IMG/VR virus record: IMGVR_UViG_3300025949_000023
Location: 8,044-72,043 of that record
Source of the DNA: a virus
Strand: one strand, 5' to 3'
DNA: 64,000 nt
The notes below the pieces were generated by a model. The model saw only the letters and a program-made list of their open reading frames with translations, did not search any database and was not told the origin of the DNA. Numbering within the stretch: position 1 is the first letter of the stretch; every line of letters starts with the position of its first letter. Shown in pieces: positions 7,185 through 61,337 of this stretch. The position numbers and the translations under genes are program-made.

Positions 7185-8450
7185 TTAGAAAGTGTTTATG
7201 CCAAGCTCTTTAAGGCGCTTAACTTTTTTGAAAATATTGTCTAAAGTACCACAATTACAAACAACGCAGTCTCCCTTGATGGTTTCTGCTATTTTGTTGG
7301 CATCGTCCATGGCATCCTGCATTGTGTCGCCTAAACCTATACATGAGCCAATTTCTGCCATCTCAATGCCGCATGGTATAAAGTGCGGCACCCCGTCCTT
7401 GTACATCAAGTTTTTAATCTTTACCCTGTCTTTGTACTTAGTGGGGAAGTATATGGCCTGGCTTTCAGTGAGTGCCCACTCCGATTTTATTATTACCTGG
7501 GCGCCAAACTTAGCAGTGGGCTTTAAATCAGGCACCATGCCGTTTGCCATTTCCCATACCGCCTGTGGAAAGTTGCTGTATATTTCAAGTTGCAGGTCAC
7601 CCGGTGGTTGCGGCATACGTGTGGTGGGGTCAATAAAATACCCTTTCTTCCCGTTCCACCTTACTTCATTTGAGAAAAAGCACTTGTAACCTGCGCCGGC
7701 AAAAATGCCTGAAAGTTTTTTGTTTATATCTTTTAATACCTCGGGCAGCTCGTCATACCGTACAATCTTTCCCAAATAACCGGCATCCTTATCTTCAATA
7801 CCGGTCATTGCAATATCCGGGTAAAGGCCGTTAATGGAAAATCCATCGTAGCCAATTTCCTCAGCTGGGTCAACAGGGTCAACGGCAACAAACGTGGCCT
7901 GTTCGTCAAAAGCACCCAGCGTATGCTTCATTTCTGTTAGCCGGGATGCAGACAAAAGTTTATCATGATAGAGAAACGTTTCGCCGTTCCCGCGTATAAC
8001 ACTGGTTTTTATCCATTTTTCCTTCTCATTTTTGAGAAACTCGTTTAGTTTGCTAAAACCATTCAATACTTTATAACCAGGTACAGGCAATCTTAAATCA
8101 TCCAGCATTTCCATAAACTCGTCCCTATTTATCTCCATGGTTTCGCCCATGCGTGGGGCGAATACTGCTTTACCAAACTTGGTAACAAATAAGTCTGCCA
8201 GTGGCCCTTGGTAAATATCTACTATACAAACAAGGTCAACCTCCTCAATTACCTGCGCCCAATGGTCTACCCGCTCAATATCTGGCACATCCATCCCTAT
8301 GGCAAAACTATTCCAACGCGGAAACGCGGCTTGCCAAAGCGTATTGTAATAAACTTTTTTGCAGTCGCGTGCCATACGCTGTGCAAAGGATACTTCATTT
8401 CCGTACCCAATTACAATACAGGTTACTTCTTTTATAGGTTTGAGTGCCAT
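7185..8450 (-). CDS. PurD/GARS-like ATP-grasp ligase of unknown substrate
   Basis: 421 aa. CIVIGYGNEVSFAQRM, VFAP..GETMEINR, LPVPGY, WIKTSVIRGNG and YFIDPTTRMPQP align by eye with the PurD motifs VLVIGSGGREHAL, IFGP, IPTA, VIKADGLAAGKG and VIEFNCRFGDP. Confidence 0.75.
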   Translation of the reverse strand: MALKPIKEVTCIVIGYGNEVSFAQRMARDCKKVYYNTLWQAAFPRWNSFAIGMDVPDIERVDHWAQVIEEVDLVCIVDIYQGPLADLFVTKFGKAVFAPRMGETMEINRDEFMEMLDDLRLPVPGYKVLNGFSKLNEFLKNEKEKWIKTSVIRGNGETFLYHDKLLSASRLTEMKHTLGAFDEQATFVAVDPVDPAEEIGYDGFSINGLYPDIAMTGIEDKDAGYLGKIVRYDELPEVLKDINKKLSGIFAGAGYKCFFSNEVRWNGKKGYFIDPTTRMPQPPGDLQLEIYSNFPQAVWEMANGMVPDLKPTAKFGAQVIIKSEWALTESQAIYFPTKYKDRVKIKNLMYKDGVPHFIPCGIEMAEIGSCIGLGDTMQDAMDDANKIAETIKGDCVVCNCGTLDNIFKKVKRLKELGINTF

Positions 8451-15477: not shown

Positions 15478-18400
15478 CCGTTGCGTGGGCTAAATGCGTA
15501 ATTTAAATACAACCCGAAGATATAAATTAATTCGGGGTCTGCACGCTGCAAAATCAACTCCATCCATGTCCCTTTCAGGAAGTCTCCGTTAATAAGGCCT
15601 CCTTCGCTGTTTACATCCCGCCAGAAAGCGGCACTGTAAATACCTTCCCTGAAATCAAGATCTTCGTCCAGCAATGTACTTTGGTTGCCCAGCTCAGTTT
15701 GTATCTGCGTAGGCATTGGCGCTGTCCATATTTTCCCATATTGGGAATTGTAGTTTATTGCCCGGTATTCTTTTTTGGCGTTTGCCTGCGGGTTAAATAC
15801 TATATCTAATGAGGCTGGATAAAGTACACCATACGGTGTTATCTGGCCGTATTGTTCAATTACACCATACTGCGCTATCTCACCAGGTACGTAAATTTGA
15901 CCGTAGTTTGAAAAGAAGGTGTTATACTGGTTTTGATTCGTAAAGCTGTACAATACGCCTTTCTGCCACGCATACAGCACGTTTTCACCGCACTCAATCA
16001 TATCTGGTTGCCAATCCCTCCAGTTAGTAAATGCGTTCTCTGCTTCGTCCCATACAATAGTGTCTCCCTGTATATCATCGCCGCTTTGGAAAACAAATAT
16101 GCACTCCTTCTTTTTGTCCCTTTGGAAATAACAGCATCCCAGTATTTTGGCATAGCCGCCGTAATATCCTTGATGGTTATTTAAATACTGTGTAGCCAGT
16201 GGCCCTACAAATGTTTGTACTTTCCCTTCTTCGCTTATTGGTGTGTAACCATCCTGAGAAAGTCGTAACAAATACCCTTTTACCGGGTCTGGGTGATAAT
16301 CAACATACCCATCTGAAAACAGCCCGTCAGCCTGGTTGCCTATGCCAAAACTTCCGTCATAGTACTGGATGTTGTTTTGTGTAATTATCGTGTCGGAAAC
16401 TATCAGGTTTTTAGTCCCGTCATTGTTTACAATGAATTTTGCATACACCCCTATAACACCTGTACCGCGCTCATGGAAGATTCTGGCGTTTCGCTGCCGG
16501 GCAACCATCCGCATAACCTTACCCTTGCTGCGGTCAAATTCATCGTAGTCAAAAGGATAAAATATGCTTATACCGTTTACATTCGTTCCTTGCTGGTCAG
16601 GATGGCTAAACCTAAACCTTGTGGGATATTCCTGTTGTTTTACATCCGGCGCCACAACTGCAGGTTTCCCGTTGCTGCTGGTAACAATAGCGTACACATC
16701 GCTGAATGACGGCTCAATTACCGGTATCTGTATGTTTTCTATTATCTCCATTTTAAGCACATGCTGCCCGTATTGCACTGTAGTTGTGCCATCTATACCT
16801 GCGTCAACTTCAATATAAAACACTATACATCCCGCGGGCACTACTGCATCAACAATCAACTCGGTAAAATCCGCCTGGTCGCCGGAAGAAGCAAGAAACC
16901 TGTTTTTAGCCAGATAGTAGCTTGTATAGTTATTACTTGGGTTAATAACAACCACAAATATGCTCAGGTTTACGGCTTTGTCGGTTGTTGCGCCAGCCGT
17001 GTCAACTGTAAACCGCAAAGAAATGTCGCTCGCTGTTTTATTCTTAAATATGTAATCGGTGCTGCTGTAATCAACAAGGCCTGTTAATCCGGGGTCGGTG
17101 TTGTAATTCTGTGTTCCTACTTCGTACCGTGTATTGCTTACATTCCCACCCTGCGGCGTTGCGCTGGGGGTGGCGTATGTTTCGGCAATCTTATAATTAC
17201 CAATATCGTAGTAATAAATAAACCCTACCGGCACCGTTCTCCACCGGAAGAAGTTATCGCCATCGCTTATTGTGACGATAGCCGCCTGCGAAAGATTAGC
17301 TGTTTGTGTTTGGGTATTGCCCATGTGGTAGGCTTGTGCTGTACCTGAATTACCAATCCCAAACCATTTACCAAATTCAAAATAAGTATTGTTGTTTGTT
17401 TCGCCTTCTACAATATTTGACTGGTGGGCTTTTAAATTGTAAAGCAACACTTGGTAGTGCTGGTAATCTATAGTCCCGTCAAAAACAAAGACTCCAGGTG
17501 TAATATCGGCTGTAGGGTAGTTTATTTTTACGAAGTTGCCAGTCATTTGCTGTGTATTGATAACAGGGTTTACCTCCAAAGAAAGCACCTCGTAATCAAG
17601 ATTAAGCGTAGAAATGTCGTGTCCTACGCCGCTGGCATCCCATCTGGCATTAAACCTCACCCTGTCGCCGGGGGAGAAGTTGTACTGTACGACGCCCTCA
17701 CTGGCCTGTATAGTTTTATTATATTCTACAATATTGCTTACATCTATGTACGCATACTGTTTTTCAAGGTACACCTGGCTATACGCCTGCCGGGAAACCC
17801 AGTTAAGTATTTTATTGTATGAAAGCTGAGGCGTCCTTAAAACCTGGTAGCCGGTAGCCCATATTGGTGGCCGGTGTGAAATTAAGAGTGCAAGCTGGGC
17901 CACCCCCGCTGCATACGCGCCAAAGAACTGGGATGGCGTTTTGATAAAACACTGCGCTGTGGTTACTACTGTATTAGTGCGTCCTTTATCATCCCGGTAA
18001 TTAATGGCTATCCCATAGTTGCAGTTTGGTAAATAAGCAAAGAAAGATGTGTTTAAAATGCTATAATCTGCCGGTACGTAAGGCGCTGCATCCAAAGTGG
18101 TGTTTGCCCGGTACAAAACCAAACTGTTTGTGCCAAGACTTATGAATGTCCACCCCTGCGCAATACTGGCTACCTGCAGTTGTGTAAGCGCCGTAACCAC
18201 GGAAGCGTCACTGGCCGTAATACTAAACCCTACCTCCGCCTGGGCTGCGTTCTGTGCTTTTACGGTAAGTACGCTACCTGCCAGCACATCTAATAAGGAT
18301 GGATTATCGTTGCCGTCATTTGTACCGGTACCGGTTAAATATATCGTAACATACCCGGTGTACGGGTTTTGATACGCAAAAAACAGCAACCCATTTACTG

Positions 18401-21920: not shown

Positions 21921-23534
<1,614 letters not shown>

Positions 23535-28145: not shown

Positions 28146-28338
28146 GTACTTTAATTAAAGCCAGCACTTACGCGGCTGGCTTACGGTGTAGTATATTCTT
28201 CTCTGTCATTCATTGGCTCATACAACACTTCTATTGCCTTTGACGGAGCATGCGGTCTGCATAGTCTTGCATGCGTTGGTTTTTCGGCTCTTTGCAGCCT
28301 AACCGGCCCTGATTTGTCCGGCACCCTGTATAAGATTG

Positions 28339-28413
28339 CAGAACGTACGGGTGTCGAACCCGTTTGAATGCTCCCGTGACAGGGGAGTGGCCTAACCGTT
28401 AGCCCAACGTTCC
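28339..28413 (-). tRNA. tRNA-Asp(GTC), CCA not encoded
   Basis: Acceptor GGAACGT/ACGTTCT; anticodon stem CTCCC/GGGAG with loop CT-GTC-AC; T arm ACGGG-TTCGACA-CCCGT; G discriminator. Confidence 0.85.
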
Positions 28414-45213: not shown

Positions 45214-45615
45214 TTAATTAGTTTTCTTCCCCTTTAAAGTCTTAAGCAACAATGTTCGCTGCCACGACTCTAAGTTATCAGCATTGGCTATCTCAATATG
45301 CAACTGCTCCTTCTCATAATCAAACTTAACCTTATCAATAGCATCCATAAACTCATTGTGGCTTTTCGCTGGTACCTTTTGAACTATTGACGAATAGCCA
45401 TCATTACCGTCATTGTCCACTGAAGCTAAAAACTCCTGTGGTACCGGTATAGTCCTATTAACCATAAACTCACTGCCAGCCACCCCAGGTTTATTATTCT
45501 TATAAAAAGCGGCAAGAAAATTCAAAGCCTTCTGCGCAGTGTCCGCCCCCAACTCCTTCAACTCCTCTAACAACTCCAACTCAAATCTTACCCCTATCGG
45601 ATTCGTCTTTGCCAT
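45214..45615 (-). CDS. Ribbon-helix-helix (CopG/Arc-like) DNA-binding protein
   Basis: MAKTNPIGVRFELELLEELKE N-terminus (beta strand plus helix); operator array upstream. Confidence 0.6.
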   Translation of the reverse strand: MAKTNPIGVRFELELLEELKELGADTAQKALNFLAAFYKNNKPGVAGSEFMVNRTIPVPQEFLASVDNDGNDGYSSIVQKVPAKSHNEFMDAIDKVKFDYEKEQLHIEIANADNLESWQRTLLLKTLKGKKTN

Positions 45616-45628
45616 ATATTTTTATTTA

Positions 45629-45744
45629 GTAGCTACAAATATATAGCGTAGCTACATTGTGTCCAAATAATTGTCGCTACATTTTTAGACAAGTAGCTAC
45701 TTTTTTTATTTACAATACAAACTTTATAGTATTCATGTAGCTAC
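45629..45744. promoter_or_regulatory. Five GTAGCTAC palindromes overlapping a consensus Bacteroidota promoter
   Basis: Copies at 45629, 45648, 45673 (GTCGCTAC), 45693 and 45737. Promoter on -: TTTG (45664-45667) N20 TATATTTG (45636-45643). Confidence 0.8.
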
Positions 45745-45955
45745 GGTTATCGAAACAGCAAGTAGGGTATATGAGGGTACTCTCCAACAGTAAGCACCTG
45801 TTTAGGCCGGCGCCTGGGTGGGGGTCAAAGTCGAAAGCTGGGCTACCGGGTGGGTCGCGATTTTTTATTCGCTTATAACCCTGCGCGTGTGTGCGTTCTC
45901 TTTGCTGCCGTTGCGGATGACTGTCTTGCTGCTGCCTTTGGATTGATTGTGGAGG

Positions 45956-45983
45956 CCATCTTATAATATTTATTATGTTAACT
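45956..45983 (+). other. dif-like XerC/XerD recombination site
   Basis: CCATCTTATAA-TATTTA-TTATGTTAACT has 11-6-11 architecture; right arm differs by one base from the E. coli XerD arm TTATGTTAAAT; intergenic. Confidence 0.75.
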
Positions 45984-46340
45984 GGCAACTTTGTCATGCT
46001 GTTTTTCAATGAGTTATGCAGCCTGTTTGCTTGCTTGTTATTTCGTTCAGCCTATCCCCTACCCTCTTGGTTTTACGCCTGATGTGCTGTTTTGAGCCGG
46101 TGTTGTGTTGTGCTAATCATCCTGCATGCAATCGCCTGGCCTATACCCTTGCAAAAATATTTTAACGCAGTGTCAACGCCCTTGTTTGCCAAAATATGCC
46201 TGAAAACCAGTAAATTAGCACGGTGTATGAAATAAATAACAGGTGCTTAACCGTGTCAAACCCTTGTAAAAAGCCTAAAAAATGTTAGTTTGTTTGTTAA
46301 TATCTAAATTTGTTGTCATAGCTTTTAAAACGGTTAAGAT

Positions 46341-46715
46341 ATGCGATTGATAAATGACACAAACCGTCTAAGGTTGTTGGTTTTTAGGTTTTTAGAGCAG
46401 CAAGGAGAGGATTATTGCAGGCTTTACAGGTTTTCGCCTGAACGTATTACGGGCGATTTGCGGGACTACTTCACCCATGTGGGTGTTTACACTCTTTATT
46501 CAAATGAGGTGCTTTACAGCTATATTGAGGCGCGTTTGAGGTATGTTTTTGATTTAGCCGCAGAATACAAGCAAACAAAGCGACGTTTGGGCCTTACAGA
46601 AGAAGATTTATCTAAGTTTTTTGGTTACGCGGACCGACCTTCGTTTGCCATCAGTAACAAGAAAAACCAGCACATAACAGCTTTTTTAAGTATTGCGCGG
46701 GCTATTATGCCATAG
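46341..46715 (+). CDS. HTH (XRE-like) regulator
   Basis: C-terminal KQTKRRLGLTEEDLSKFFGY; TAAATTTG -7 element at 46305-46312. Confidence 0.5.
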   Translation: MRLINDTNRLRLLVFRFLEQQGEDYCRLYRFSPERITGDLRDYFTHVGVYTLYSNEVLYSYIEARLRYVFDLAAEYKQTKRRLGLTEEDLSKFFGYADRPSFAISNKKNQHITAFLSIARAIMP

Positions 46716-46813
46716 CTGCAATGTTGCAGTAACACACATGGATGTGTGATAATTGTACGCTTTTAGCCAGTATTTTACCGATTATCCTTGATTTTGACCG
46801 CTTGTGTATCTTA

Positions 46814-46846
46814 TTTGGTGGCGATAAGCTCATTAATGTATGTTTG
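46814..46846 (+). promoter_or_regulatory. Early promoter
   Basis: TTTG N21 TATGTTTG, upstream of a short hydrophobic ORF starting at 46865. Confidence 0.6.
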
Positions 46847-47012
46847 TGTCCTAAATCAAAACACATGCACTACATAATCTTTTTAGCCGTTATCGCCATA
46901 CCAATGTTTTTATTTGTTAACGCTCTTTATAATGAGGGTAAAAAAAATAATATATAGTTATGGTACCAGCAATAGCCACCATTATTACAATGGTTTTATT
47001 TTACCTGCAAAC

Positions 47013-47041
47013 AAAACCCGCTAAAAGATAGCGGGTTTTTT
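47013..47041. terminator. Bidirectional intrinsic terminator
   Basis: AAAACCCGCTA-AAAGA-TAGCGGGTTTTTT between convergent ORFs. Confidence 0.8.
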
Positions 47042-47047
47042 GATGTT

Positions 47048-47386
47048 CTAAATTTTGTGGGTGTGCTGTAATATGCCATCATAAAACACGTTAATGGCTG
47101 TTAGTTGCCCGTTTTCCGTCCTCACTTCAAAGGAAACAAATTCACCCGGCAGCTTCTTTTTTTCAGGAAAATACACGTCATAAAGCAGCATTTCCGCTTT
47201 ATCATGTTCATGTGCATGTACGTATATCCTTATGTCCGTCCCTTCCGGTTCGTCCAGCCGGATGCCGTGTGTAAATGCCTGTATACCATTTTCTTCCAGC
47301 GTTGTGATAACCTTGTTAATTGTTTGGCGGTCGCCATTTTCTTTGTAAACCTGCATTAATGTTGTCATATGTTTGATTTTAGGCAA
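47048..47386 (-). CDS. DUF2007-like small protein
   Basis: TTLEENGIQAF...IRIYVHAHEHDKAEMLL pattern. Confidence 0.45.
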   Translation of the reverse strand: MPKIKHMTTLMQVYKENGDRQTINKVITTLEENGIQAFTHGIRLDEPEGTDIRIYVHAHEHDKAEMLLYDVYFPEKKKLPGEFVSFEVRTENGQLTAINVFYDGILQHTHKI

Positions 47387-47531
47387 AGTAAATGATGTGG
47401 TTTGTCATTTCCTTACGGTTTCCCGTAAGCCAGGTAAATTACCGTCCATACCCGTTTTTTTACCGCTTGTACCATAAAGTTGGTAGTTGCTTTTGTGTGC
47501 ATGTACATTTGACCTATCAAACACACATGAT

Positions 47532-47777
47532 ATGAAAAAGATAACAGTTATGGAGCAGGTTACCGCTATTGTTAAGCATTGCCAACGTAACGGTGTTAAA
47601 ATACAATGCTTTAGCGAATTTAACGGCATTGTGTCCGCTGTACCGGTTGGCGAGCCAAATAGCCGCTATACTTTGTTTTCTATTATGAGCATCACAGAGC
47701 ACGGCGATTGCCACGCCGATTATCTGCGCAATGCTTGGGGACGCAGTTCTTCGTACTCTCACTCTTATTCTAATTAA
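47532..47777 (+). CDS. Early hypothetical protein
   Basis: MKKITVME start, after TACATTTG promoter element at 47504-47511. Confidence 0.55.
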   Translation: MKKITVMEQVTAIVKHCQRNGVKIQCFSEFNGIVSAVPVGEPNSRYTLFSIMSITEHGDCHADYLRNAWGRSSSYSHSYSN

Positions 47778-47798
47778 CCACCACAAACACACAAACAC

Positions 47799-47993
47799 AT
47801 GCAAACAACCTATATCTTAACCAACGCAGCCGGCAATCTTTATTTAGCTGATGAATTAAATATGCTTTGGTGGCATGAAACAGACTATGCCTGTAAGCAT
47901 TTCGATAATGAGGCGCAGATTGATACATTCCTTATGCGTGAGGATGTTAAAGCCTTTTTAGACGGCGAATTTGTACGCATGAAGCAATTTTAA
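47799..47993 (+). CDS. Early hypothetical protein
   Basis: 64 aa; AAACAC-ATG. Confidence 0.6.
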   Translation: MQTTYILTNAAGNLYLADELNMLWWHETDYACKHFDNEAQIDTFLMREDVKAFLDGEFVRMKQF

Positions 47994-48025
47994 ACCACAT
48001 TCCTAACTATTTAATAATTAAACAC

Positions 48026-48232
48026 ATGGCTTACACAAATCCTGTTACCGGTCAACGCGCTTCAACTGGTACGCTAAACGCATGGTTACGCACTGAAAAA
48101 GAATTTTTGGCTGATTATATAGCCATCGAAATGCACAAACAAGGCCTATTGAGCGAAGAAGCAAGCAACCGCCTTTCTTCGCTTGCCGGGCCCATTGCAC
48201 AAATTATTAACGACTGGACACACGAAGGTTAA
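48026..48232 (+). CDS. Early hypothetical protein
   Basis: 68 aa; AAACAC-ATG; stop codon lies inside hammerhead stem I. Confidence 0.6.
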   Translation: MAYTNPVTGQRASTGTLNAWLRTEKEFLADYIAIEMHKQGLLSEEASNRLSSLAGPIAQIINDWTHEG

Positions 48233-48279
48233 CTGACGAGCTTTAAATAAGCGAAACGGGCGCCTTGCCCGTCTTAACC
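48227..48279 (+). ncRNA. Type I hammerhead ribozyme
   Basis: GGTTAA CTGACGA GCTT-TAAAT-AAGC GAA ACGGGC-GCCTT-GCCCGT C TTAACC: full CUGANGA/GAAA core, three perfect stems, GUC cleavage triplet (cut after 48273). Confidence 0.93.
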
Positions 48280-48294
48280 AACAAACTATAACAC

Positions 48295-48531
48295 ATGAAC
48301 TGGAAAGAATTAAAAGAGAAGTTTGACAACTTACGCCGCAATACGGGCCTTTTTCATGGTTTAGACCTGCATGCCGGTGATGCACGCCTTGGGCGTGTTG
48401 CCTCAACCGTTATGTATGGGGAGCGCGGCACAATGGCTGTAATTAGCGGATATTATTCTTACAAAGAGCTATCCGCATACTTTGACGGATACCAAGCGGC
48501 CATGCAGTCAATTTTAACCGAAAAAGTATAA
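48295..48531 (+). CDS. Early hypothetical protein
   Basis: 78 aa; AACAC-ATG. Confidence 0.6.
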   Translation: MNWKELKEKFDNLRRNTGLFHGLDLHAGDARLGRVASTVMYGERGTMAVISGYYSYKELSAYFDGYQAAMQSILTEKV

Positions 48532-48541
48532 TACTAAAGCC

Positions 48542-48865
48542 ATGGTACAACCTTATTCAGTCGAAGTACAAGCCACTAACACAATAAACACGCTAAAAGC
48601 GCTGTTTACAGGCGATAGGCTCGCCTTAGATTTATTGGCAGGCCAGTATATAGCAGGCGACGATAAACGCGCATTAAGGCAGGAAATATGCCGCCAGATA
48701 ACTGGCGAACGCCGCCCACAGGGTAAATGCACGGTACTGGCTGTTTCAGACGTTTTACACGCCTCTTTCCACCAGTACAGCCTATTTGCACAACCGGCAC
48801 CTGTTGAGCGCGTTACGCAGCCTGTAATTAACTCCCGCGCATGGTTTGAGTTTTTGGCGAAATAG
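48542..48865 (+). CDS. Early hypothetical protein
   Basis: 107 aa in a co-oriented cluster. Confidence 0.55.
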   Translation: MVQPYSVEVQATNTINTLKALFTGDRLALDLLAGQYIAGDDKRALRQEICRQITGERRPQGKCTVLAVSDVLHASFHQYSLFAQPAPVERVTQPVINSRAWFEFLAK

Positions 48866-48970
48866 TTTCGCTATGCGTTGCGGTATAACCGTTGCATTTG
48901 ATTGCACCAACGCACTATATACCCCTAATGTTTGGGGGAATTATTAAACAACCACATAAAAACTATAAAA

Positions 48971-49615
48971 ATGAACACTTACGCAAAGTACTGCCCAAAT
49001 GTATTTGTTGCCAAATGTGCAGAAAAGCACGAAAAAGGCGAAATAATAACCCTTACTACTCAATACGGCAAAGAACACGATTGCATTGTATTTAATTTGG
49101 TAGCCACTGGCAAAGACGGTTTTTATTATTATTCAATCGTTCGCGCTGATGGCTACAATTTACAGGAACGCGCTAAAGCTAAGGCAGAACGTTACAACCA
49201 ATGGGCTGCAAGTGCAGAAAACAAAAGCAACCAGTATTATGAAGCAAGCAAAGAAGGCGCTGATTTTTTAGCTTTAGGCGAACCCATTAAAGTAGGCCAC
49301 CACAGCGAAGGCAGGCACAGGGCTTTAATACAAAGGAATTGGGACAGGATGGGCAAGAGTGTTGAAATGGCAGACAAAGCAGAACAACACGAAAGCAAAG
49401 CCGAATATTGGCAGCGCAGGGCAAACGATATTAATTTATCTATGCCTGAAAGTTTAGAGTATTACGAATATAAACTACAATTAGCACAGGAAAGACATAC
49501 GGGGCTTAAAAATGGCACAATACACCGTGAACATAGTTTCTCCCTTACCTATGCTAACAAAGAAGTAAAAGAGCTTACAGATAAGCTAAATACAGCTAAA
49601 AAACTTTGGGCTTAA
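48971..49615 (+). CDS. DUF3560-like protein (leading-region/early gene)
   Basis: ERAKAKAERY...LGEPIKVGHHSEGRHR. Confidence 0.8.
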   Translation: MNTYAKYCPNVFVAKCAEKHEKGEIITLTTQYGKEHDCIVFNLVATGKDGFYYYSIVRADGYNLQERAKAKAERYNQWAASAENKSNQYYEASKEGADFLALGEPIKVGHHSEGRHRALIQRNWDRMGKSVEMADKAEQHESKAEYWQRRANDINLSMPESLEYYEYKLQLAQERHTGLKNGTIHREHSFSLTYANKEVKELTDKLNTAKKLWA

Positions 49616-49981
49616 CTCCCCCTTACCCTGCAACGGTTTAGCCGTGGCCGTTCAATCGGGCGGCAGGGTGCTAAAACATCATGGGCCAGGGGCAAGAATA
49701 AGCATTGGGCTTTGGTTGCGACGCTCCCGTGTACGCCTGGTAACAGTATGCAGCAGTTGCTTTTGAATAACAATTAAGCACCTGGTTAAATACTTTACAA
49801 TAACATAAATACGGAATAAGTGCTTTTTGCAGTCTTTTCAATGGTTTCAGGCTTTTTTAGTACACCACCAATGTACTAACGGGGCAATATACAGCACCTG
49901 AAGGGCAAATAATTGGTACATTATAACCGTGTTATTAAAATGATTTACACTTTTATTGTATAACTTTAAAGCCTAAATTAT

Positions 49982-50458
49982 ATGGAAATGCCTAAAAGAG
50001 TTTACTTTGAAACAACCGAAACCATAACAAAACACAGCAAGGGGTATATTGAAATTGACACGGATTTTACCCAGGTGTATGATTGCTTTAGCAAGGTTTC
50101 GCTGCGTTTTAAGTCTGTTACCAGCATGAAATTAATGTTTTGGCTGTTATCGCATGAGGCCAACCAGGCTAACGGGATTAACAGCGGGGCCGCTGTACAT
50201 GAGCGCTTTTGTAAGTTTCTTAAAGAAGAAGGTTATGAAGAGGTGCCAATGAGAACATTTAAAGCCGCTTTTGAAGAGCTGTATAAAACAGAAGTGTTAA
50301 CCAGGGTAGGCCGTGGGCAATACTATTTCAATCCGCATGTGTTTTGGCGCAACGATAAAAACGAGCGCATAAACTTTATTATTGACGAGGCAAAGGAAAA
50401 GAAATTCCTTTCACACAATCCGCTTAATGAAACTAAATCTTTAAACAATAAACCATAA
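49982..50458 (+). CDS. RepL-like winged-helix replication/maintenance protein
   Basis: FTQVY...KLMFWLL...FEELYKTEVLTRVGRGQYYFNPHVFWR. Confidence 0.6.
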   Translation: MEMPKRVYFETTETITKHSKGYIEIDTDFTQVYDCFSKVSLRFKSVTSMKLMFWLLSHEANQANGINSGAAVHERFCKFLKEEGYEEVPMRTFKAAFEELYKTEVLTRVGRGQYYFNPHVFWRNDKNERINFIIDEAKEKKFLSHNPLNETKSLNNKP

Positions 50459-50463
50459 AACAC

Positions 50464-51072
50464 ATGAAATTCATTATTTCAGAACACACGCTATATGATA
50501 GCGAACAGGAAATGTATTTTACTAAAATCGGCGAAGATTGCAAAGCCGGTGCGCTGCGTTTTACTGTTTGGGGGAAAACTGCAGAACAATCCCGCATATT
50601 TGCGGAAAACCTTGTTACTAAGTTTGAGGCGTATAATGCACTGGCAGCGGTGCCGGAAGTGTCTAACTTTGTGACGACCGCAAACGTAGCTACCCGCTCC
50701 GGCCAGGTTTACATCGAATTGCCAGACGTTGAAGCTGTTCCACCCTTTGTAATGGTAAACAATACCGTGTATGTGCCTAAACAGGACACAGTAGCCACAA
50801 ATTTGGCAGATAATGCAGAAGTAAGCCAAACCACTGCAAGTAACAATGAGTCAAAAAACAATGCATTACAGGCGCTGTTAGACAAGGCTATGTTTTTGCA
50901 GCAAAAGAATGACTTTCTTCAAAGAATGTGTGAACAACTGGCCGAAGGGCTTGAAACTCTTGTTTCAGAAGCTGACAGGCCACCCAGCGAACAAAACAAA
51001 AGGCTTGATGCCCTTTTTGCAGCTTTCAGTAAAGCACATTCATTAGTTAAGGCTTACAAACTATCAAAATAA
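50464..51072 (+). CDS. Hypothetical protein
   Basis: 202 aa; AAACAC-ATG. Confidence 0.6.
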   Translation: MKFIISEHTLYDSEQEMYFTKIGEDCKAGALRFTVWGKTAEQSRIFAENLVTKFEAYNALAAVPEVSNFVTTANVATRSGQVYIELPDVEAVPPFVMVNNTVYVPKQDTVATNLADNAEVSQTTASNNESKNNALQALLDKAMFLQQKNDFLQRMCEQLAEGLETLVSEADRPPSEQNKRLDALFAAFSKAHSLVKAYKLSK

Positions 51073-51089
51073 TCATTCAAACCAATACA

Positions 51090-51548
51090 ATGAAAAACAA
51101 ACTACAAGTTTTAAAAAACTGCGTTGTAGACTTAATAGAAGATTGTTTAATAAATCTTGACACAGACAAATATACGCAGGATGAAAAAATTCTTATCCTT
51201 GCACATGGGGAGTTGTATCAACACGAGCTTGCAAAGCTTGCACACAAATACATCTCTGAATATTGCCCAGCCCCAAAGCCAGAGGCTTTAATGAAATTCC
51301 GCCTGTTGCAACATTTAACAAACAGGTTTTATACCCACCCTTATAAACGGCAAACATTCACCGAGGCAAAGAAGTTTATTGAGGCCCACGGCAAACGTAA
51401 AGTAAACGGCAATGTGGTTGAAAGCAAATACACCATGTGGGTTAAAAAAGAAAGCTGCGTACACTTTCACATGAAAGATAGCACGGTTGCAGCTGTTACG
51501 GATAACAAACACTTTGCCGGGGTGTTAGCAAATTTCGTAAACTCTTAA
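51090..51548 (+). CDS. Hypothetical protein
   Basis: 152 aa. Confidence 0.55.
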   Translation: MKNKLQVLKNCVVDLIEDCLINLDTDKYTQDEKILILAHGELYQHELAKLAHKYISEYCPAPKPEALMKFRLLQHLTNRFYTHPYKRQTFTEAKKFIEAHGKRKVNGNVVESKYTMWVKKESCVHFHMKDSTVAAVTDNKHFAGVLANFVNS

Positions 51549-51551
51549 TTT

Positions 51552-51854
51552 ATGGAGTACATAGAAATAGAAGCGAACCTTTTAATATTAGCCAGTACGG
51601 AGAATGTTTTTCACAACCGAAAGAGCCGGGTGGAGAGCATTACGGGTTTCCATACCAACTATATGGATAGTTGGGAATTGGTAGGCGATTGTGGAGACGT
51701 ATACAGGCTTATCGCAATGGCTAATTTTGAAAGTATTGCAGAATTAAAGCAAGTCATTAAAAAGGCTGAAAAATATAACTGGATATTTTGGAACGACAGC
51801 TATTTGTTACAAGATGGCACAGAGATTTACAGTGAAGGAAAATGGCTTATTTAG
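51552..51854 (+). CDS. Hypothetical protein
   Basis: 100 aa. Confidence 0.55.
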   Translation: MEYIEIEANLLILASTENVFHNRKSRVESITGFHTNYMDSWELVGDCGDVYRLIAMANFESIAELKQVIKKAEKYNWIFWNDSYLLQDGTEIYSEGKWLI

Positions 51855-51904
51855 CAACATTTGTACAGTAAACGTATTTTTATCAATCTTTAAATAAAAA
51901 ACAC

Positions 51905-52167
51905 ATGACAGAACTACTTTTTATGATTGGCAACATCATGCCGGAGGATGAAATTGTTAATAGCATAACATCCGCTGCTTTGGAATATCAAACAGGCAGC
52001 AAGGAAGAAGCAAGGAAGAAGCAAGGAAGAAGTTGTCAATGTACTGCATGCTTTTTCTAACCAAAGAAGCTAACAAAGGCAAATCACCAGAGGAATTATT
52101 CAAAGAGGCCACAAAACTTAACCGCGCACAAGATATTCTTAAGCGCATGGAAGGTGAAAAACAGTAA
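51905..52167 (+). pseudogene. 83-aa gene frameshifted by an extra 11-bp tandem repeat unit
   Basis: AAACAC-ATG start; (AGCAAGGAAGA)x3 at 51998-52030; two copies restore an ORF ending TAA at 52165-52167. Confidence 0.7.
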
Positions 52168-52189
52168 AAAACGCTTTAACCGAAACTTT

Positions 52190-52217
52190 AAGCCCGTCCT
52201 ATGTGATGGGCTTTTTT
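52190..52217 (+). terminator. Terminator at the convergence of early (+) and replication (-) arms
   Basis: AAGCCCGTC-CTATGT-GATGGGCTT-TTTT. Confidence 0.75.
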
Positions 52218-52352
52218 ATGCCTGCATCCTATGGCCGGGTGCCTCCGGCGCAATCGGTTTTTGAAATCCCGCTACGCCAAGCGGGAATAGAAAAACCCCA
52301 CATGAATATGCGGGGTTTACTCCAAATGAAGAACTGCTATATGAGACAAAGT

Positions 52353-52610
52353 TTATTTTCCTCCAAACAAATCCGGTTGTTTTGTTTCTGCTGCAGGTGC
52401 TGGTGTTTCTTCCTGCCACCATTCAAATGTTATGGTGCGCGTTACGCCGCCCGTAGTTACTTCGTCCTCCCAAAACATTAGGGTGGCCCGGCGCCCATCT
52501 ATAAGCGTTACCCCAAGGCTTTCATTGGGTGTATAAATAAACCCGAATAAAGTGTAAAGCCAAGGTTCTTTCCGGCAGGTGAAAACTGTTTTAATTATTG
52601 GCTGTGTCAT
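52353..52610 (-). CDS. Hypothetical protein
   Basis: 85 aa; translationally coupled. Confidence 0.5.
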   Translation of the reverse strand: MTQPIIKTVFTCRKEPWLYTLFGFIYTPNESLGVTLIDGRRATLMFWEDEVTTGGVTRTITFEWWQEETPAPAAETKQPDLFGGK

Positions 52611-52852
52611 TATTCTTTAATTGGTGTTACGGCTGTTTCAATATTGTGTATAGTCATTGCATTGGCCACAATTGCATAAAAAGCTTCTATTTTGTACTCT
52701 GCAAATGTATTAAAGTCAAGTACCATGGTGTCCGATGGCTCCCAAGCCTCGCCAGTTGCCTTAAACATAGTCTTTTTAACATCCATGAAAAATGCCTTTA
52801 ACTCGTCCTGTGGTACATTTTTAATAGTTATGCTTATAGTTGCTGTTTCCAT
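52610..52852 (-). CDS. Hypothetical protein
   Basis: 80 aa; TAATG coupling. Confidence 0.55.
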   Translation of the reverse strand: METATISITIKNVPQDELKAFFMDVKKTMFKATGEAWEPSDTMVLDFNTFAEYKIEAFYAIVANAMTIHNIETAVTPIKE

Positions 52853-53055
52853 TACTCACCCCCTCCCAATGGCAGTTCTGTTTGTTGCTTTCTGTTATAC
52901 CTGCGTTTACCCTGGGCGTCCTGCAATGCCTCTGTTTTGGCTTCTATATACCCATTTAGGGTATATAGCAAGGCCGTTTGCTCATTAGTCGAGAGGTCGT
53001 CGCTGTCTTTTAAAAGGGCTTTAAACTCAGCCCGAATTGTCTCCGCTGATTTCAT
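52852..53055 (-). CDS. Hypothetical protein
   Basis: 67 aa; AAACAC-ATG. Confidence 0.55.
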   Translation of the reverse strand: MKSAETIRAEFKALLKDSDDLSTNEQTALLYTLNGYIEAKTEALQDAQGKRRYNRKQQTELPLGGGE

Positions 53056-61269: not shown

Positions 61270-61337
61270 AGCCGCTTACAGGGGTCGAACCCGTACTTAA
61301 CTGCGTTGCCATCGTGCTGCCATTACACTAAAGCGGC
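61270..61337 (-). ncRNA. tRNA-like RNA lacking a canonical anticodon arm
   Basis: Acceptor GCCGCTT/AAGCGGC plus T discriminator; D arm TA-GTGT-AATGGCA-GCAC; T arm ACGGG-TTCGACC-CCTGT; only 19 nt between D and T arms, with no 5-bp stem. Confidence 0.7.

Follow-up and report, generated by a model that had tools for sequence, protein, structure and literature searches.

Hammerhead ribozymes have been known in phages since 2011, when prophage hammerheads flanking genes were described and three polycistronic fragments (RNAs of about 2 kb) were reported to be cleaved in vitro (Perreault et al. 2011, PMC3088659). The same study describes a hammerhead in the haloviruses HF1 and HF2, 13 nt before the start of an early gene, and maps the transcript's 5′ end to no more than 3 nt from the cleavage site (PMC3088659). 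Two reviews describe the motifs as flanking small non-conserved ORFs and as persistently phage-linked with an elusive role, for which the processing of polycistronic RNA has been proposed (PMC6155905, PMC6765202). Processing of polycistronic phage RNA by hammerheads is the standard, unproven hypothesis in print, backed by the in vitro cleavage and the halovirus 5′ end. In RNA mycoviruses, a 2026 paper reports that catalysis by a type I hammerhead is required for translation of the downstream ORF (PMC13725137). A literature search at the level of papers returned none on an arrangement of stop codon, hammerhead and leader in DNA phages; the only related work that it gave was this mycovirus study, as paper and preprint.

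The hammerhead described here lies in a window of 64,000 nucleotides (positions 8,044 to 72,043 of the IMG/VR virus record IMGVR_UViG_3300025949_000023) and is a typical canonical member of a large known group. As a single case it adds little; its value is that of a clean example of a very regular arrangement, shared by about a hundred viral contigs, in which stem I includes or adjoins a stop codon and has an A on either side, and a short G-poor leader precedes the next start codon. This arrangement makes the purpose of phage hammerheads addressable by concrete reporter experiments.

Like the prophage and phage hammerheads of Perreault et al., the window's motif has a canonical core, sits between genes of a phage cluster in the sense direction, is accompanied by small non-conserved ORFs and shares the same proposed role. 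Unlike the published examples, in which clusters of two or three are stressed (a frequent but not obligatory feature), it is present as a single copy in its genome. The published bacterial set is rich in type II hammerheads with pseudoknots, whereas the window's motif belongs to type I, has an open stem I of 6 bp and is not predicted to form a pseudoknot. HHphage, the hammerhead of HF1 and HF2, shares with it the setting in the early region of a lytic tailed virus, a polycistronic transcript (both presumed for the window) and a short distance to the start codon (13 nt in HHphage and 21 nt in the window). That archaeal-virus motif, however, has a variant core, stands before the first ORF of its transcript and is supported by primer extension, while the motif in the window has a canonical core and is internal to a gene run. 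Fungal RNA virus hammerheads (PMC13725137) resemble it in being of type I with a long helix III and in occupying a short intergenic region with the cut a few nt before an ORF, but they belong to eukaryotic RNA genomes and exert their effect on cap-independent initiation, and the analogy is functional only. Within the type I subgroup of uncultured phages collected here (L068-L187 from viral contigs and L200-L315 from genome contigs), stem lengths, loop II UAAAU, N7 as C or U, the GUC triplet, the flanking A residues, the stop codon and a leader of 15-39 nt are all held in common, and only the sequence and length of stem III differ.

The motif occupies 48227-48279 (+), 53 nt, and is a complete type I hammerhead by its sequence, its MFE fold, a descriptor match and its score under the covariance model R1 described below. 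Stem I consists of 6 bp between GGUUAA (48227-48232) and UUAACC (48274-48279), the latter being the stretch with which the predicted 3′ product would begin. Between these strands lie the core CUGACGA (48233-48239; C3 to A9, with N7 = C), stem-loop II (48240-48252), the core GAA (48253-48255; G12, A13 and A14) and stem-loop III (48256-48272). Stem II comprises 4 bp, beginning with G10.1-C11.1, in which GCUU (48240-48243) pairs with AAGC (48249-48252) around the loop UAAAU; in stem III, CGGGC and GCCCG enclose the loop GCCUU and, together with the A15.1-U16.1 pair (A48256-U48272), give 6 bp between 48256-48261 and 48267-48272. The order of the sequence elements gives type I topology, in which loops cap helices II and III and helix I is left open. 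All positions that define a hammerhead are present (CUGANGA, GAA, A15.1-U16.1, G10.1-C11.1 and GUC), and the claim of the first-pass annotation that all core nucleotides and three fully paired stems can be seen is borne out by CUGACGA, GAAA, GUC and stems of 6, 4 and 6 bp. Hammerheads cleave 3′ of H17, and the predicted scissile bond at this consensus position follows C17, between 48273 and 48274; the triplet GUC (G48271, U48272 and C48273) fits the N-U-H rule, in which H is not G.

Stem I is abutted on its 5′ side by an unpaired A at 48226 (+), the third base of a GAA sense codon, and on its 3′ side by an unpaired A at 48280 (+), a position conserved in the family. There is no internal loop in the window's stem I, and the classical tertiary contact with loop II is thus not supplied from there. 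The sole candidates for such a contact are the A on each side of stem I and loop II, which is U-initial in 12 of its 12 commonest forms, suggesting that the flanking A residues may be the partners of loop II.

A descriptor covering all three hammerhead types (I, II and III) was run on both strands of the 72,043-bp genome to judge how often such a motif arises by chance, and gave a single match; 300 first-order Markov shuffles gave 0.01 matches per genome at loose settings and none at the stem lengths of the window. For R1, 23 phage hammerheads with a length of 50 or 52 nt were aligned, taken from 98 distinct type I sequences of viral contigs; the window was not among them. It scored the site at 57.9 bits (E 4.1e-14) over 48219-48287, along its full length (model positions 1-66), which places the window 53rd among 111 R1 matches, and the runner-up within the window, among the 14 matches listed at E ≤ 10, reached 14.2 bits (E 0.34). 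No second hammerhead was found in the phage genome by descriptor or by R1, and no other class of self-cleaving ribozyme was detected in 45500-53000 at E ≤ 1. That the site only resembles a hammerhead by chance or is inactive, with two hairpins serving for instance as an RNA stabiliser or a weak terminator, is very improbable in view of this shuffle expectation and of the E value under an independent model. The − strand form of the stem III hairpin was indeed flagged as terminator-like (48274-48254), but no − strand gene ends there and the + strand has no T run after stem III; the other point in favour of a look-alike is that Rfam gave no match at gathering score.

A scan with hammerhead covariance models, which the first-pass annotation had proposed as a check, came out differently for the two kinds of model: R1 recovered the site, whereas the Rfam models stayed below gathering. 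No hammerhead family matched the window at gathering score, and the best, RF02275 (HH9), aligned over model positions 11-63 with 16 bits against a gathering score of 52. The core and the three-helix junction are nevertheless common to the window and the families of Rfam clan CL00010, to which we take RF00163, RF00008 and RF02277 to belong; RF02276 is, by its reference line, the type II hammerhead family. With Rfam release 15 at gathering thresholds, no hammerhead was returned in seven hammerhead-rich loci (L143, L082, L073, L128, L085, L078 and L198), each of which holds 1-5 descriptor hammerheads, and the failure of Rfam to report the window is therefore uninformative. The group sits below the Rfam gathering thresholds and is consequently overlooked in routine phage genome annotation.

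Folding of the 53-mer alone gave exactly the hammerhead three-way junction as the MFE structure (−15.8 kcal/mol, z −2.45), with 5 of 200 shuffles as good. Across seven larger contexts of up to 506 nt, the hammerhead fold lay 0-0.8 kcal/mol above the MFE. Stem I, whose helix is A/U-rich, was absent from the MFE in three of these seven, by only 0.8 kcal/mol, and had a pairing probability of only 0.21-0.52 in the six larger ones, while helices II and III reached 0.64-0.98 in the contexts folded, with stem III at 0.91-0.96 throughout. In these models, which ignore tertiary contacts, the hammerhead fold is accessible and not dominant.

The ribozyme is placed sense-wise in a 62-nt gap between two + strand ORFs, one of 68 aa upstream (48026-48232) and one of 78 aa downstream (48295-48531, with its ATG at 48295). 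The upstream ORF ends GGT TAA at 48227-48232, and this last codon and stop make up the 5′ strand of stem I, as had been noted before; the 21-nt leader that a cut after C48273 was said to leave for the gene at 48295 likewise has the right coordinates. This predicted post-cleavage leader, UUAACCAACAAACUAUAACAC (48274-48294, +), is free of G. Both ORFs belong to a + strand run of eight consecutive small ORFs, tightly packed and bracketed by terminator-like sites, of which one lies upstream of the unit (47013-47039, +) and the other is a hairpin with a T run that would end it (52190-52213, +). With codon usage learned from the long − strand genes, each of the eight scored best in its own frame; among six frames, the own frame of the upstream ORF gave 0.183 versus −0.25 or lower, and that of the downstream ORF was best with 0.288. 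The sequence, the R1 score and these coding-like frames support the reading that a complete type I hammerhead lies, in coding orientation, among tightly packed small ORFs of the + strand; that the run is "early" is suggested by gene layout only.

Searches for relatives of the two flanking proteins, in which longer and shorter length classes were left out, found none in viral contigs for either the 68-aa or the 78-aa ORF, and only the self match of each among 5.8 billion proteins. Pfam and PHROGs searches of the neighbouring ORFs gave a function only for the DUF3560 gene (phrog_17519). Just past that gene, 49625-49669 (−) shows a weak match to the Rfam family DUF2693-FD (22 bits against a gathering score of 44.5, E 0.31). 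A possible promoter at 47342-47375 (+), upstream of the + strand gene run, is a weak match, by consensus only, to TTTG ... TAnnTTTG, which we take to be the Bacteroidota promoter consensus; this consensus matches the window 8 times where 4.2 matches are expected, a number reached in 4 of 100 shuffles and not significant overall.

Relatives of the RNA are numerous. At least 120 viral contigs contain a pattern composed of the core and helix II of the window's element, and 105 of 120 such loci carry at least one complete hammerhead by descriptor, the majority of type I with a 6-bp helix I. R1 gave its 111 matches in 100 sources (the window and L068-L166, with L167-L187 left out). In the resulting alignment 98.8% of pair cells hold standard pairs and 13 of 15 pairs have changed on both sides, and the covariation score of 0.673 compares with 0.134 for shuffled alignments (0 of 500 as high) and at most 0.086 with slid partners. 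This support applies at family level. The alignment was fitted to R1 and includes the 23 training rows, and its loci were collected with a search pattern in which stem II of one copy per locus is prescribed. The identity of the element is supported by its motif, by the statistics, by membership in a covarying family and by the gene arrangement, and the motif at 48227-48279 is very probably a true hammerhead ribozyme.

The arrangement around these hammerheads was analysed in 108 distinct type I contexts, the window included. In 92 of them, an upstream open frame of 40 codons or more terminates between −40 and +12 relative to helix I; the other 16 have no such frame. The stop codon starts 3 nt (24 contexts) or 2 nt (23 contexts) before helix I in 47 of 108, lies within the 5′ strand of helix I in 12 (offset +1 in five and +3, the offset of the window, in seven) and falls just beyond that strand, at +6 or +7, in five more. 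On the other side, the next ATG that opens an ORF of 40 or more codons follows the cut site by 15-39 nt in 84 of the 108 contexts, and by 21 nt in the window. Sequence features were tallied in a subclass of 82 members, the window counted, defined by a helix I of at least 6 bp and a stem-loop II of 12-14 nt. An A directly precedes helix I in 80 of these 82 and directly follows it in 81; conservation of the 5′ A is not merely a stop-codon effect, because A48226 of the window belongs to a GAA sense codon. The window's loop II, UAAAU, is the commonest form (15/82), its stem I hexamer GGUUAA is the second commonest (11/82), and N7 is U in 52, C in 23 and A in 7 members. By these sequence features the window's element is a textbook member of the subclass.

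We propose that the type I hammerhead would be carried on the mRNA of the + strand small-gene run, roughly from 47.4 to 52.2 kb. Once the polymerase has completed 48227-48279, stems II and III would form first and stem I would close last; the 2′-OH of C48273 would then attack the neighbouring phosphate, cutting the transcript between 48273 and 48274. The upstream product would comprise three small ORFs, among them that of 68 aa with an intact stop codon, and would terminate in nearly the whole ribozyme, that is two stable hairpins, and a 2′,3′-cyclic phosphate. The downstream product, bearing a 5′-OH and the unstructured, G-free leader of 21 nt, would carry the DUF3560 gene and other ORFs in addition to that of 78 aa. 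The operon's two halves would likely gain separate stabilities, separate translation efficiencies or both, without the help of a host RNase. That a genuine ribozyme cuts the operon RNA at 48273/48274 is probable in our judgement, with its transcription, its cleavage and their consequences being what we infer from sequence.

The same ribozyme could have the opposite effect, either by a 5′-OH that marks the downstream RNA for decay or by a protected 3′ end that the upstream three-gene message gains, much as from a terminator hairpin but without termination, and this we hold to be possible although rather unlikely. Type I topology fits the second variant, as nearly the whole ribozyme, including the G+C-rich stem III hairpin, would remain on the 5′ product. 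For the first, cleavage of glmS is followed by degradation through cellular RNases and by lower expression, according to one review (PMC6765202), and a human hammerhead reduced both reporters in a bicistronic test described in the mycovirus study (PMC13725137). Against both stands the leader of 15-39 nt before the next ATG in most contexts, which suggests that the downstream gene is translated from the cut RNA, and such decay would depend on which host RNases act on 5′-OH ends. The first-pass annotation supposed that the 5′-OH end may stabilise the downstream message; the effect could go in either direction, with glmS, by analogy, as a precedent for degradation.

The phage is represented by one 72-kb virus record that encodes TerL, a portal, a virion protein, a DnaB-like helicase and a GroEL-like chaperonin, and its nearest named TerL relatives are phages of Cellulophaga, Flavobacterium and Maribacter with 24-27% identity. 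The single sequencing run listed with this DNA is a rhizosphere DNA metagenome, which may be where the contig came from, and a look for RNA runs gave none. The phage's start regions lack Shine-Dalgarno (SD) sequences: of 91 ORFs that reach 100 aa, 5 have an SD core, compared with 4.5% of random windows; genome-wide they are G-poor, with A enriched at −11 (67%) and −12 (57%). Start regions that are SD-less and A-rich are a habit of Bacteroidota.

These features bear on a further alternative, in which the hammerhead is a translation device whose cleavage frees a short unstructured leader for SD-less initiation, or in which a terminating ribosome gates its folding. We consider this unlikely. The lack of SD cores, the A-rich positions and the hosts of the nearest named TerL relatives all speak for it, as does the stop codon that abuts or enters stem I in most family members; given this position across contexts, a terminating ribosome would generally cover stem I. 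Compact gene packing, however, explains the adjacency of the stop codon equally well as ribosome coupling does, and a ribosome could do no more than delay cleavage, which is irreversible. The coupling of cleavage to translation, put forward in the first-pass annotation, is speculation. In the fungal RNA viruses, translation initiation at an ORF behind a type I hammerhead is reported to require the catalytic G of the ribozyme (PMC13725137), but this precedent concerns eukaryotic cap-independent initiation. In its most specific form the idea would be that A-flanked hammerheads with a 6-bp stem I are a dedicated phage translation device, held open by the terminating ribosome and self-cleaving upon its release, whereupon the new 5′ end 15-39 nt before the ATG recruits a ribosome in SD-less hosts such as Bacteroidota; we regard this form, too, as doubtful.

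An SD-like core is present in 37 of 73 subclass leaders from viral contigs, which indicates that the family is not tied to SD-less hosts and counts against a role in SD-less initiation. A restriction of the subclass to phages of Bacteroidota was accordingly rejected as a rule, despite the taxonomy of the genome contigs (L200-L315), in which 14 of 19 titled loci of this architecture are MAG contigs of Flavobacteriales or Flavobacteriaceae (with Ulvibacterium and Saonia presumably placed in the latter). Many of these Flavobacteriales and Flavobacteriaceae MAG loci have AATACT/AGTATT as stem I. The genome contigs also contain a second architecture, with a 5-bp stem I and a 17-nt stem-loop II, in Acinetobacter and others.

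A selfish or relic cassette that recombination distributes among phages and that is merely tolerated in intergenic gaps, without benefit to this phage, is, in our estimate, improbable. It would account for the same stem I hexamer and loop II in otherwise unrelated contigs, as only four protein matches were found between the 243 ORFs of the phage genome and 236 hammerhead loci, for the many contigs in which several copies share stem I, and for contigs that are related through the DUF3560 gene and do not have the window's element. The perfect core and fully paired stems speak against it, and the highly regular placement relative to stop and start codons in the 108 contexts argues for selection on function. 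We retain the cut of the operon RNA by a functional ribozyme as the preferred reading.

The DUF3560 gene itself has relatives in 67 loci, and five of these 67 have descriptor matches. The match in L001 is doubtful, and L021, L022 and L027 share one identical match at minimum thresholds, which leaves that of L005 (2697-2747, +; stems of 7, 4 and 5 bp) as the only convincing hammerhead among them, and it is of type III. This hammerhead precedes the DUF3560 homologue of its 73-kb phage contig by about 1.25 kb, a different permutation in a comparable neighbourhood. Five whole records of DUF3560 phages gave no R1 match at E < 0.1 and have, at the DNA level, only the DUF3560 gene in common with the phage. 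No close relative of the phage carrying the locus was found in searches with the flanking proteins, TerL and DUF3560; a pattern scan for TerL relatives found none, and BLAST of the 69-nt site against named phages returned nothing meaningful.

R1 searches of four named TerL relatives gave one match, of 39 bits, in the cultured Flavobacterium phage vB_FspP_elemoF_6-3D, located between gp65 and gp67 on the − strand (NC_055853.1, 16037-16110, corresponding to L198:1501-1574). With two of its four stem II pairs broken, this match was not counted as a sure ribozyme. It is overlapped by the annotated gene gp66 (35 aa, opposite strand, 16030-16137), possibly a spurious annotation.

Several further features of the phage genome were recorded. 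Its GroEL-like chaperonin is full-length at 21921-23516 (−) and matches phrog_5725 with E 3e-130, and a homologue with 34% identity lies near a hammerhead in contig L158. Two tRNA candidates, each called by a single tool, are found on the − strand, one at 61270-61337 (Rfam tRNA, 40.4 bits) and one at 28338-28413 (ARAGORN, tRNA-Asp with anticodon GTC).

Hammerhead arrays of 2-5 copies within a few kb, often of mixed types I, II and III, occur in L143, L147, L078, L101, L103, L109, L152 and L177. Among 16 loci with more than one type I copy of the subclass, eight have an identical stem I hexamer in all copies, and L143 has four copies with GGTTAA as stem I. An RNA excised between two copies with the same stem I could pair its own ends into a hammerhead, with possible circularisation; were such elements to serve translation, the ends of the excised mRNA could likewise re-form the ribozyme and be ligated into a circle.
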